The position numbers and the translations under genes were made by a program. Below, in pieces: positions 6,021 to 6,162 of a stretch of DNA of 25,621 nucleotides (its first letter is position 1; each line of letters opens with the position of its first letter). Under the pieces are notes generated by a model that was not told where the DNA came from, did no database searches, and saw nothing but the letters and a program-made list of their open reading frames with translations. Origin of the DNA: an uncultured Methylomarinum sp. (GTDB lineage: Bacteria; Pseudomonadota; Gammaproteobacteria; Methylococcales; Methylomonadaceae); the NCBI GenBank assembly GCA_964506335.1, contig CAZDMC010000001.1, forward strand, positions 1-25,621, given 5' to 3'.

Positions 6021-6064
6021 GACAAATTCTCGCTCTCTTAAACTAAGTATTAATTTAAGATTAA

Positions 6065-6080
6065 AGCGATTTATGAGCCA
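6065..6080 (-). promoter_or_regulatory. Putative sigma54 (-24/-12) promoter of the diguanylate cyclase
   Basis: Minus strand TGGCTCATAAATCGCT = GG-N10-GC versus consensus TGGCACNNNNNTTGCW, 45-60 bp before the ATG. Confidence 0.55.
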
Positions 6081-6099
6081 TAAATATATTTTACATAAA

Positions 6100-6112
6100 A
6101 ATCACTGCATTA
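6100..6112 (+). promoter_or_regulatory. Putative IHF site
   Basis: AATCACTGCATTA versus WATCARNNNNTTR (one mismatch), preceded by an A/T tract and lying between the enhancer-like box and the sigma54 site. Confidence 0.35.
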
Positions 6113-6122
6113 TGGTTGCTTC

Positions 6123-6136
6123 GTCAATTTTTTGTC
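6123..6136 (-). promoter_or_regulatory. Putative FleQ/FlrA-type binding box
   Basis: Minus strand GACAAAAAATTGAC versus P. aeruginosa FleQ consensus GTCaNTAAAtTGAC; the ATTGAC half-site is intact. Confidence 0.5.
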
Positions 6137-6162
6137 TTAGTCTTTACCAAGAGACACCTCTA

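Follow-up and report, generated by a model that had tools for sequence, protein, structure and literature searches.

A predicted sigma-54 promoter with a FleQ-type enhancer box upstream of a diguanylate cyclase gene in an uncultured Methylomarinum

The zipA-cyclase gap and the encoded enzyme

The window, by which we mean the whole analysed stretch of 25,621 nucleotides from a marine methanotroph, contains a gene for a diguanylate cyclase (DGC) that lies downstream of zipA on the same strand. The gap between the two genes holds, in transcription order, a predicted FleQ-type enhancer box, an IHF-like core with an A/T-rich tract and a predicted sigma-54 promoter (Table 1). The positions assigned to these three motifs in an earlier, sequence-only reading prove exact when the letters are read again. 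The stretch from zipA to the DGC gene has no predicted terminator, so that read-through from upstream could contribute to expression, and no structured RNA or tRNA is found within the 142-bp gap.

Table 1. Genes and predicted regulatory features at the locus (window coordinates)
Feature	Position	Strand	Sequence	Size	Remarks
Intergenic gap	6021-6162			142 bp	Between zipA and the GGDEF gene, both on the minus strand
zipA	6163..6834	-			Upstream neighbour, same strand; Pfam ZipA_C; stop codon 6165-6163
Diguanylate cyclase (DGC) gene	5118..6020	-		300 aa	ATG at 6020
FleQ-type enhancer box (predicted)	6123..6136	-	GACAAAAAATTGAC		Near-palindrome with GACAA and GTCAA half-sites
IHF-like core	6100..6112	+	AATCACTGCATTA		-58 to -46
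A/T-rich tract	6081..6099	+	TAAATATATTTTACATAAA		5' of the IHF core; separates it from the -24 element
Sigma-54 promoter (predicted)	6065..6080	-	TGGCTCATAAATCGCT		GG 6079-6078 (-25/-24), GC 6067-6066 (-13/-12)
Transcription start (predicted)	6054	-			12 nt past the C of the -12 GC, from sigma-54 geometry; 34-nt leader
Shine-Dalgarno-like element	6027..6031	-	GAGAA		6 nt ahead of the ATG; aligns with GGAA or GAGGAA in orthologues

The DGC gene, which encodes a protein of the GAF-like/GGDEF type, is found across the Methylomonadaceae. In the window its product matches Pfam GGDEF (2.4e-50) and TIGR00254, and consists of a disordered N-terminus, a GAF-like alpha-beta4-alpha sensor (residues 36-115), a linker helix (118-135) and the GGDEF domain. 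The GGEEF signature occupies residues 213-217 (positions 5370-5384), and an RDSD I-site is located five residues upstream (204-207; positions 5400-5411); R204, D207 and the stretch G213-F217 are invariant in 30 homologues. Judged from these residues, the enzyme is of the active type and carries a product-inhibition I-site. For the AlphaFold2 model (pLDDT 79.7), Foldseek gives its longest alignments with Dcsbis, itself a diguanylate cyclase (4zmu), and with a bacteriophytochrome-DGC (5llx). The former extends over 263 columns at 28% identity, and GAF-GGDEF proteins of the Dcsbis (PA2771) type likewise combine a small N-terminal sensor fold with a linker helix and an RxxD-bearing GGDEF domain, although the alpha-beta4-alpha fold of the window protein is shorter. 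The N-terminal domain has no Pfam match, and no identical protein was found in database records. A lead from NCBIfam to the name 'DgcS' was discarded, as the literature matches were only to the plural 'DGCs'.

Conservation of the sigma-54 and IHF-like elements

The element TGGCTCATAAATCGCT has the exact GG-N10-GC spacing and differs from TGGCAC-N5-TTGCW at two positions, with both GG and GC intact. Its occurrence is not unusual in itself: at up to two mismatches, the pattern gives 17 matches in the window scan against 15.8 expected. The same applies to the IHF-like core, where AATCACTGCATTA agrees with WATCAANNNNTTR at 12 of 13 positions and the pattern, at up to one mismatch, is matched 65 times against 61.4 expected. 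Both elements are at chance level in the window alone, and it is the relatives that indicate, through conservation, that they are functional. The sequence-only reading had described each motif as weak by itself, and this description is accurate for the sigma-54 and IHF-like elements; it fails for the enhancer box, which is unusual in the window (see below).

To assess conservation, 15 upstream regions were aligned that represent three clades, at 62-73% protein identity. The TGGC and GC blocks of the promoter are invariant in all 15 (inter-clade identity 1.0, compared with 0.43 elsewhere in the gap) and are also found in four further relatives (L229, L230, L063 and L079), the general form of the element being TGGCAY-N7-GC. 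The ATG follows the GC at a distance of 44-46 nt in 14 of the 15 orthologous upstream regions. The window has TGGCTC as its -24 hexamer and L229 has TGGCGC, compared with TGGCAC/T in the other orthologues examined. The IHF-like core is less strictly kept (inter-clade identity 0.63 against the background of 0.43); in the direction of transcription it takes the form YAA-N4-nTGAtT in the orthologues, ends 19-20 nt ahead of TGG, and in L012 is the perfect CAATATATTGATT. The stretch that corresponds to the A/T tract of the window is A/T-rich in all orthologues. The putative IHF site, made up of the core and its 5' A/T tract, is placed between enhancer and promoter, at a position that is conserved in the orthologues. 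Overall, the sigma-54 element, the IHF-like core and the palindrome upstream of them are all conserved upstream of orthologues, and the order proposed earlier, enhancer, IHF-like site and -24/-12 element, is the same there.

With regard to transcripts, no RNA runs containing the window were found. In RNA-seq data of M. tundripaludum, the locus lies entirely within assembled contigs of about 6 kb, whose depth along it is flat, hence the position of the start site is unreadable from them. The presence of rpoN is inferred from two enhancer-binding proteins in related MAGs (the GAFTGA motif of FleQ being intact) and from the sigma-54 promoters of fleS, fliE and fliK in these genomes.

Enhancer sites and candidate activators

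If transcription starts at 6054, the box GACAAAAAATTGAC spans -82 to -69, with its centre at about -75. It agrees at 13 of 14 positions with the P. putida FleQ consensus GTCAaAAAAtTGAC, the published forms being GTCaNTAAAtTGAC / GTCAaAAAAtTGAC (PMC6120874). In Pseudomonas this consensus is a poor genome-wide predictor (536 matches in F113, most of them unbound), and FleQ ChIP peaks are dominated by IHF and sigma-54 motifs (PMC6120874). In the window, the box is the sole match to GTCAAAAAATTGAC at up to one mismatch, and at up to two mismatches there are 3 matches against 0.55 expected.

A closer comparison is provided by the fleS promoters of the family itself. In the fleQ-fleS gap of Methylomonadaceae, GTCA(A/T)-N4-TTG(T/G/A)C is followed by 38-41 nt that include an IHF-like ATTGAAA, and then by TGGTCT-N5-TTGCT; the corresponding stretch between box and sigma-54 element measures 42 nt in the window, which makes the spacing nearly equal. 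The same 14-mer recurs in one genome, L152, whose fleS-promoter box is GTCAATTTTTTGTC, the reverse complement of the window box. Furthermore, the fleS box of L162, GTCAAAAACTTGAC, is one base away from the DGC box of L001 and L002. On a matrix built from 11 Methylomonadaceae fleS boxes, the window box scores 18.2 bits and ranks first among 25,608 positions, with 0.005 such matches expected per window; the matrix was trained on sites chosen by the regular expression G.CA-N6-TG.C and favours the outer positions. The earlier reading of the motif as a FleQ box is thus borne out by its likeness to the family's own fleS-promoter box. The arrangement also resembles the FleQ-dependent class II fleSR (flrBC) promoter of polar-flagellated Gammaproteobacteria, in which the same GTCA-N6-TGAC box lies about 40-65 nt before the sigma-54 element with an IHF-like site between them. 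The box itself is seen ahead of the fleS/flrB sigma-54 promoters in Colwellia, Grimontia, Enterovibrio, Endozoicomonas and others. At the fleSR promoter, FleQ acts from a distance, by looping (PMC6120874). The fleS promoters differ from that of the window in that they serve the FleS/FleR pair rather than a DGC, and in their -24 hexamer (TGGTCT vs TGGCTC).

FleQ is available in the family. Clusters of the form fleQ-fleS-fleR-fliE...fliK occur in Methylococcales, and fleQ-fleS-fleR is present in four DGC-carrying MAGs (FleQ/DGC pairs L154/L002, L158/L013, L159/L003 and L161/L009). The four FleQ proteins are full-length, are 47-51% identical to P. aeruginosa FleQ over residues 6-482, retain GAFTGA, and have the same HTH recognition helix, RRTTLVEK(L/M)RKY. 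A homology search with P. aeruginosa FleQ returned only Pseudomonas relatives among the matches listed, and nothing relevant on FleQ or FlrA in methanotrophs was found in the literature. Metagenome contigs about 83% identical to Methylomarinum fleQ-fleS-fleR were considered as those of the window organism and rejected: in the same run their depth is 103-115, compared with 3-6x for the window, which indicates that they belong to another, more abundant relative.

Among the orthologues, the proximal box is conserved to a similar degree as the IHF-like core (inter-clade identity 0.66 against 0.43), its position 2 varying between G, A and T; in L229, a relative at 81% identity, the 14-mer is identical. 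The distance from the centre of the 14-bp palindrome to GG is 51, 61-62 or 72-74 bp, depending on the clade. These steps of about 10.5 bp correspond to whole helical turns.

A second palindrome, distal to the first, complicates the assignment of the activator. CGGCAA-N4-TTGCC, of the FlrC/FleR type, is near-perfect in 14 of 14 orthologues, where it is better conserved than the proximal box, and Methylobacter carries extra CGGCAA copies further upstream of the DGC promoter. CGGCAA is missing from the 300 nt that precede the window DGC gene: the alignment leaves only a TTGG remnant there, L229 keeps a half-site, and the zipA stop codon sits where the orthologues have the distal site, which suggests that the palindrome was lost because zipA abuts the promoter. 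The fleS promoters likewise lack this palindrome, which most DGC orthologues add.

These observations raise the alternative that the same sigma-54/IHF promoter answers to FleR/FlrC, the class III activator, with the distal palindrome as its strong site, the proximal box as a weaker second one, and only the weak one kept in the window. CGGCAA has been proposed as the FlrC motif (bioRxiv 10.1101/2021.08.29.457346), and, usually arranged in tandem inverted repeats, it characterizes the class III enhancers of flgB, flgF, flaA and fliK. Among the matches listed, such tandem sites go with flgB, flagellin and fliK sigma-54 promoters in many Proteobacteria; tandem GGCAA-N4-TTGCC stands beside the sigma-54 promoters of flgB (L080, L109, L119, L121, L131, L138 and L147) and beside flagellin genes (L087, L091, L108 and L128), and flagellin promoters have second sites of the form GACAA...TTGCC. 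In Methylomonadaceae, a cluster of GGCAA-type motifs lies downstream of the fliK promoter; such sites are downstream at fliK and at some flagellin genes, whereas those of the DGC promoters are upstream. In Methylomonas L230, the sole palindrome is of the GGC type and occupies the proximal position, so that FleR could use this position. Moreover, a fleR mutant of P. aeruginosa shows lowered expression of the DGC genes siaD, sadC and gcbA (PMC8335546). Despite these points, FleR/FlrC as the activator in the window appears unlikely to us. The window and L229 hold the GTCAA/GACAA box unchanged while the CGGCAA site decays, and the box retained is that of a fleS promoter. The fleS-box matrix gives the distal GGCAA boxes no more than 2-4 bits, which keeps the two classes apart, and the HTH of FleR, SPRTLRYK.ARMK, is unlike that of FleQ. 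In the relatives, by comparison of these sites, the activator may be FleR, or FleR together with FleQ.

An enhancer-binding protein from outside the flagellar system whose Fis-type HTH is similar, for instance a T6SS-type or a dedicated activator, might also read the palindromes. The motif class is not exclusive to flagellar genes, as tandem GGCAA-N4-TTGCC also precedes the T6SS genes hcp of Lysobacter arvi (L125) and vgrG of Vibrio litoralis (L085). This explanation is nevertheless highly improbable: 11 of the 13 sites outside Methylobacter with a nameable neighbour are flagellar, among the matches listed, the window box is of the fleS-promoter type, and no activator gene adjoins the DGC in any relative's locus examined. 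The genome-wide scan for tandem palindromes gave mostly noise among the matches listed (Bacteroides repeats), and otherwise pointed to flagellar promoters and a Methylocaldum flagellar cluster. An FlbD ftr consensus was not found in the literature.

The loss of the distal site, taken with the off-consensus -24 hexamers of the window and L229, also bears on whether the promoter is still in use. With this hexamer and without the strong distal enhancer, the window promoter could be weakened. In the extreme case it would be a decaying relic, and most DGC transcripts would come from read-through of smc-zipA, zipA being on the same strand and ending 142 bp before the DGC with no predicted terminator, or from a weak sigma-70 promoter, for which one match exists (AAGACA-N18-CATAAT, 6138-6109). 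However, sigma-70-like matches number 6 against 7.1 expected, and the one at 6138-6109 is not conserved. The box, the IHF core, GG/GC and their spacing are kept between the window and L229 even though the gap around them has diverged and become shorter (392 to 142 bp), which argues for purifying selection. In addition, the family's fleS promoter works with TGGTCT, and the spacer lost with respect to the other clades amounts to a whole helical turn. Taken together, these features make a relic improbable.

A probable flagellar link of the cyclase and its proposed feedback

From its arrangement, the gap rather likely holds a sigma-54 promoter that depends on an enhancer and, via FleQ, makes the DGC a member of the flagellar sigma-54 regulon; the DGC is probably switched on with the flagellar gene programme. 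In this mechanism, RNA polymerase carrying sigma-54 would bind GG/GC at 6079-6066 as a closed complex, while FleQ, the flagellar master activator and an AAA+ enhancer-binding protein, would occupy the 14-bp box, whose centre is about 75 bp upstream. Bending of the DNA by IHF at about -52 would allow FleQ to reach the polymerase and to drive the open complex, with a start near 6054. In most relatives, the distal CGGCAA-N4-TTGCC would add the input of FleR/FlrC, the response regulator of the flagellar checkpoint; in the window lineage this site would have decayed, through the half-site seen in L229 to its disappearance in the window, leaving the FleQ-type box. Since the enzyme is predicted to be a DGC of the active type and has both a GAF-like sensor and an I-site, c-di-GMP synthesis would be coupled to the flagellar programme and kept in check by product inhibition.

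A more elaborate form of this scheme is tentatively conceivable for the Methylomonadaceae, namely a composite enhancer in which FleQ (proximal) and FleR (distal) act at one phased, IHF-bent sigma-54 promoter. A pulse of c-di-GMP would then be timed to one particular stage of flagellum construction, and the window lineage would have been rewired to FleQ alone when zipA came to lie next to the promoter. We regard this as possible, with less confidence than the FleQ-dependent promoter itself.

The sequence-only reading had further proposed two layers of c-di-GMP feedback, one through a c-di-GMP-sensing activator and one through the I-site of the enzyme. The second layer stands, as the RxxD I-site is intact. 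The first is called into question by the activator: the c-di-GMP-binding residues of FleQ are R144 (in LFRS), R185, N186, E330 and R334 (PMC8335546), and in methanotroph FleQ the LFRS motif with R144 is absent, N186 is replaced by Ala in all six proteins compared (6/6) and E330 by Asp, R334 alone being kept throughout this comparison. In the marine clade (L154 and L159), the one nearest to the window, R185 is furthermore replaced by Gln. FleQ of Pseudomonas is a proven c-di-GMP receptor, but because these residues are not conserved in the methanotroph proteins, the Pseudomonas model is not simply transferable, and a two-layer feedback may be absent here.

A link between a flagellar activator and a DGC gene is already known in Pseudomonas: in P. 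putida, the DGC gene gcbA has a promoter to which FleQ binds (PMC6120874). Together with the dependence of siaD, sadC and gcbA on FleR in P. aeruginosa, this likewise connects a flagellar sigma-54 activator to the transcription of c-di-GMP synthases and follows the circuit logic of the sequence-only reading, although the enzymes are unrelated to the window DGC outside the GGDEF domain. In methanotrophs, the sigma-54/IHF architecture with its helical phasing is known here by sequence comparison alone, and our literature searches found no publication on how aerobic methanotrophs regulate flagella or c-di-GMP. The phasing of the enhancer is textbook-like, with clade spacers that differ by whole helical turns. 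The two candidate family motifs, the FleQ-type GTCA-N6-TG(A/T/G)C and the FleR-type CGGCAA-N4-TTGCC, are usable for mapping the flagellar regulon, and the residues of methanotroph FleQ advise caution in transferring the Pseudomonas model of c-di-GMP sensing. Collectively, the predicted promoter offers, for the ecologically important aerobic methanotrophs, a concrete and testable tie of c-di-GMP synthesis to the control of flagellar genes.

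The predicted diguanylate cyclase promoter and its conservation

The gap between zipA and the gene for the GGDEF protein (DGC) carries the motifs listed in the table, and re-reading of the window places the box, the IHF-like core and the sigma-54 element exactly where the sequence-only reading had put them. With +1 predicted at 6054, the coordinates are −82 to −69 for the box and −58 to −46 for the IHF core, with GG at −25/−24, GC at −13/−12 and the ATG at +35. The window derives from a hydrothermal-vent metagenome and has a G+C content of about 38%; no tRNA or Rfam family was found in the gap.

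Table. Coordinates of the features in the window and in compared loci
Feature	Locus	Position	Strand	Remarks
smc	window	10343-6834	minus	
zipA	window	6834-6163	minus	
zipA-DGC gap	window	6162-6021		142 bp
FleQ-type box GACAAAAAATTGAC	window	6136-6123	minus	predicted site
IHF-like core AATCACTGCATTA	window	6100-6112	plus	predicted site
A/T tract beside IHF-like core	window	6081-6099		
Sigma-54 element TGGCTCATAAATCGCT	window	6080-6065	minus	GG-N10-GC spacing
DGC (GGDEF protein gene)	window	6020-5118	minus	300 aa
MITE-like element	window	4973-5121		149 bp
ORF beside dTDP-sugar genes	window	87-1469		460 aa
zipA	L229	2932-3609		
fleQ	L154	6040-7524		
fleQ	L158	6173-7645		
fleQ	L159	6208-7644		
fleQ	L161	6157-7650		
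fleQ	L153	6140-7663		
fleQ	L168	6133-7593		
CGGCAA cluster, fliK promoter	L158	~16290-16700		
CGGCAA cluster, fliK promoter	L161	16315-16650		
CGGCAA cluster, fliK promoter	L159	16276-16610		
CGGCAA cluster, fliK promoter	L157	16055-16335		
CGGCAA cluster, fliK promoter	L149	16026-16425		

Within the window, the sigma-54 pattern (≤2 mismatches) gives 17 matches vs 15.8 expected and the IHF pattern (≤1 mismatch) 65 vs about 61; on their own, these matches say nothing. At ≤1 mismatch, the P. putida FleQ consensus matches the window at the box alone (at ≤2, 3 matches vs 0.55 expected). The view that each motif alone is weak thus holds for sigma-54 and IHF, but not for the box, which is the rarer motif. 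A sigma-70 promoter was rejected, as sigma-70-like matches occur in the window only at chance level. No terminator is predicted 3' of zipA, and read-through from zipA into DGC is possible.

A protein search places the DGC family across Methylomonas, Methylotuvimicrobium, Methylomicrobium, Methylobacter and Methylomarinum, and orthologues 62-73% identical occur in 14 representative Methylomonadaceae genomes (Methylomarinum, Methylomonas and Methylobacter, including M. tundripaludum SV96). The neighbourhoods of the gene differ between genera, so it must have a promoter of its own. In an alignment of the 200 nt upstream of DGC (15 regions), TGGCAY-N7-GC is present in 15/15, the IHF-like YAA-N4-nTGAtT stops 19-20 nt 5' of TGG (with a perfect match, CAATATATTGATT, in locus L012), and the 14-bp palindrome G(T/A/G)CAA-N4-(T/A)TG(A/G)C stands upstream of the sigma-54 element; the ATG follows GC by 44-46 nt in 14 of the 15. 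The conservation upstream of orthologues that the sequence-only reading had named as a check is borne out, both for the sigma-54 element and for the spacing of the IHF-like core and palindrome. Identity between clades is 1.0 for TGGC and GC, 0.66 for the box, 0.63 for the IHF core and 0.43 for the remaining gap. The box centre stands 51 bp from GG in the window, against 61-62 bp for the Methylomarinum/Methylomonas group and 72-74 bp for Methylobacter; the spacers differ by single helical turns, as expected for an enhancer held to one helix face. The nearest relative found, L229 (protein 81% identical, also ordered smc-zipA-DGC), carries the identical 14-mer box, TAACCTAATGATT and TGGCGC-N5-TCGCT in a 392-bp gap that has otherwise diverged. 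The window's own −24 hexamer is off-consensus; for the gene family, a functional sigma-54 promoter is very probable.

Downstream of DGC, between the gene and the rml cluster, lies a MITE-like element. Its terminal inverted repeats, 20 nt long, are 90% complementary; a long inverted repeat occupies the interior, and TCTTAGAACCTG is duplicated on either side. The right repeat takes in the DGC stop codon (5118-5120). In vent metagenomes the element has a depth of about 200x vs 3-6x for the sequence around it, and more than one kind of junction occurs at 5118-5122, so it is multi-copy or common to abundant relatives. No Pfam or NCBIfam match was obtained for the 460-aa ORF adjoining rmlACD/rmlB-like dTDP-sugar genes.

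Assignment of the enhancer sites to FleQ or FleR

Flagellar regulators were located through a scan match inside a Methylocaldum flagellar cluster (L141), where a REC-AAA+-HTH_8 activator (FleR) is followed by fliF, fliG, fliH, fliI and fliJ. With this FleR as query, 80 loci were retrieved, and comparison of contig prefixes assigned four of them to the same MAGs as DGC loci (FleR/DGC: L154/L002, L158/L013, L159/L003 and L161/L009). In these and other Methylococcales loci, tblastn with P. aeruginosa FleQ (sequence checked against PDB 8P53) revealed full-length orthologues (47-51% identity over residues 6-482) some 1.4 kb 5' of fleR, in the order fleQ-fleS-fleR-fliE...fliK. The methanotroph FleQ has an intact GAFTGA and an HTH recognition helix, RRTTLVEK(L/M)RKY, the same as in P. 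aeruginosa; the FleR HTH is unlike it.

The fleQ-fleS gap, i.e. the fleSR promoter, was taken as the reference FleQ target, its FleQ dependence in Pseudomonas being published (PMC6120874). In Methylomonadaceae it reads GTCA(A/T)-N4-TTG(T/G/A)C, 38-41 nt with an IHF-like ATTGAAA, and TGGTCT-N5-TTGCT; the window DGC promoter has the same architecture, with a spacer of 42 nt. The window box, when reverse-complemented, is identical to the fleS box of L152, GTCAATTTTTTGTC, and the fleS box of Methylomonas methanica, GTCAAAAACTTGAC, is one base off the DGC box of L001/L002. GTCA-N6-TGAC also stands 5' of fleS/flrB sigma-54 promoters in Colwellia, Grimontia, Enterovibrio, Endozoicomonas, Pseudoalteromonas and others. 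With a symmetric matrix from 11 Methylomonadaceae fleS boxes, picked by regular expression (a choice that favours the outer positions), 6123-6136 scores 18.2 bits, equal to the best training site and first of 25,608 positions (0.005 expected per random window). For the GGCAA palindromes of the distal site the score is just 2-4 bits, which sets the two box classes apart. Given the match to the fleS-promoter boxes and the contrast with the CGGCAA class, the window proximal box is best read as a FleQ site.

The relatives carry a second enhancer that the window alone could not reveal, and their activator may be FleR or both proteins: in 14/14 orthologues a near-perfect CGGCAA-N4-TTGCC precedes the proximal box by 7-10 nt (with additional copies further upstream in Methylobacter). 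CGGCAA is a proposed FlrC-binding motif, present at PflgB and PflgF in a P. putida study (bioRxiv 10.1101/2021.08.29.457346). A collection-wide scan for tandem palindromes, noisy and restricted to matches near a sigma-54 promoter or intergenic and with a named neighbour gene, listed among its matches flgB neighbours in six sphingomonads and one gammaproteobacterium (L080, L109, L119, L121, L131, L138, L147) and flagellin neighbours in a Methylopumilus MAG, a Burkholderiales MAG, a Porticoccaceae genome and Marinospirillum (L087, L091, L108, L128). The tandem GGCAA-N4-TTGCC resembles an enhancer of FlrC/FleR type with wide conservation, and on these grounds the distal site is classed by its sequence as FlrC/FleR (class III) type. 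Most relatives' DGC promoters thus appear to join FleQ-type and FleR-type sites. In the 300 nt upstream of the window DGC, however, no distal CGGCAA site was found, the zipA stop codon occupying its expected place, and the box there is of the fleS-promoter type; FleR is an improbable main activator. Joint action of sigma-54, IHF and FleQ, which would drive the window promoter, is the reading we moderately favour.

Several observations accompany these site classes. The palindromes lie 21-24 bp apart at sigma-54-dependent flgB or flagellin genes in sphingomonads, Methylophilaceae, Burkholderiales, Porticoccaceae and Marinospirillum, and merely 8-31 nt 5' of the start codon in L108 and L128. The matches listed also include the T6SS neighbours hcp (Lysobacter arvi, L125 6955-6990, sigma-54 promoter 51 nt away) and vgrG (Vibrio litoralis, L085 890-925), so the GGCAA class is not confined to flagellar genes. 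In a Sedimenticolaceae MAG (L130 4400-6140), a sigma-54 promoter, TTGGCACACAAACTGCC, accompanied by three GGCAA-type palindromes, precedes a 94-aa ORF that has no annotation; next comes a transposase pair of IS3 type (HTH_Tnp_1 + rve), this IS element lying just 3' of the promoter. GGCAA-N4-TTGCC arrays with a 44-bp period in many Bacteroidales contigs (Bacteroides/Prevotellaceae; L032, L042, L044, L049, L050, L075, L082 and others) seem to be an unrelated family of repeats, which flooded the scan. In Methylococcales, the 3' end of fliJ contains the sigma-54 promoter of fliK, and a CGGCAA/TTGCCG cluster follows 250-320 nt downstream in the 5' coding part of fliK; these clusters fit the FlrC/FleR class and would form a downstream enhancer embedded in coding sequence.

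In the window lineage, where DGC follows zipA, the gap shrank from 392 bp (L229, where just a CGGCAA half-site is left) to 142 bp, removing the distal enhancer. In one Methylomonas clade (L230 and L232, ~2855-2885), CAGCGGCGGAAAATTGCCGCTG is the sole palindrome seen 5' of the DGC promoter; it is of GGC type, stands at the proximal distance and is followed by a T-run. It resembles an intrinsic terminator of the upstream FeS-assembly gene and may be a dual-use element or another enhancer arrangement; the assignment of box to regulator is consequently not clean in all lineages.

Enzyme, c-di-GMP feedback and relation to known circuits

The DGC carries GGEEF (residues 213-217) and, five residues upstream, RDSD (204-207), both invariant in 30 homologues, in agreement with the intact RxxD I-site reported from sequence. 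In the AlphaFold2 model (pLDDT 79.7) the N-terminus is disordered and is followed by a sensor domain (36-115) whose alpha-beta4-alpha fold is read as GAF-like, then by a linker helix and the GGDEF domain. Foldseek aligned the model over the greatest length with the diguanylate cyclase Dcsbis (4zmu) and a bacteriophytochrome-DGC.

The c-di-GMP pocket of P. aeruginosa FleQ includes R144, R185, N186, E330 and R334 (PMC8335546). Among the methanotroph FleQ proteins compared, the LFRS motif containing R144 is absent, R185 is retained in Methylobacter and replaced by Gln in the marine clade nearest to the window, N186 is Ala in 6/6 and E330 is Asp; R334 is kept. Consequently, c-di-GMP sensing by this FleQ is not to be assumed. 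Of the two layers of feedback proposed earlier, the enzymatic one stands, but the transcriptional one is in question, and any c-di-GMP-responsive transcriptional feedback is doubtful.

FleQ binds the promoter of gcbA, a DGC gene of P. putida, and FleQ ChIP-seq peaks are dominated by IHF and sigma-54 motifs (PMC6120874); siaD, sadC and gcbA expression is lower in a P. aeruginosa fleR mutant (PMC8335546). In view of these FleQ-gcbA and fleR-DGC links, the circuit is of an already known kind. A literature search for FleQ or FlrA in methanotrophs gave no relevant result. What is new is the occurrence of the circuit in methanotrophs, together with its family-wide conservation, phased architecture and apparent dual enhancer.
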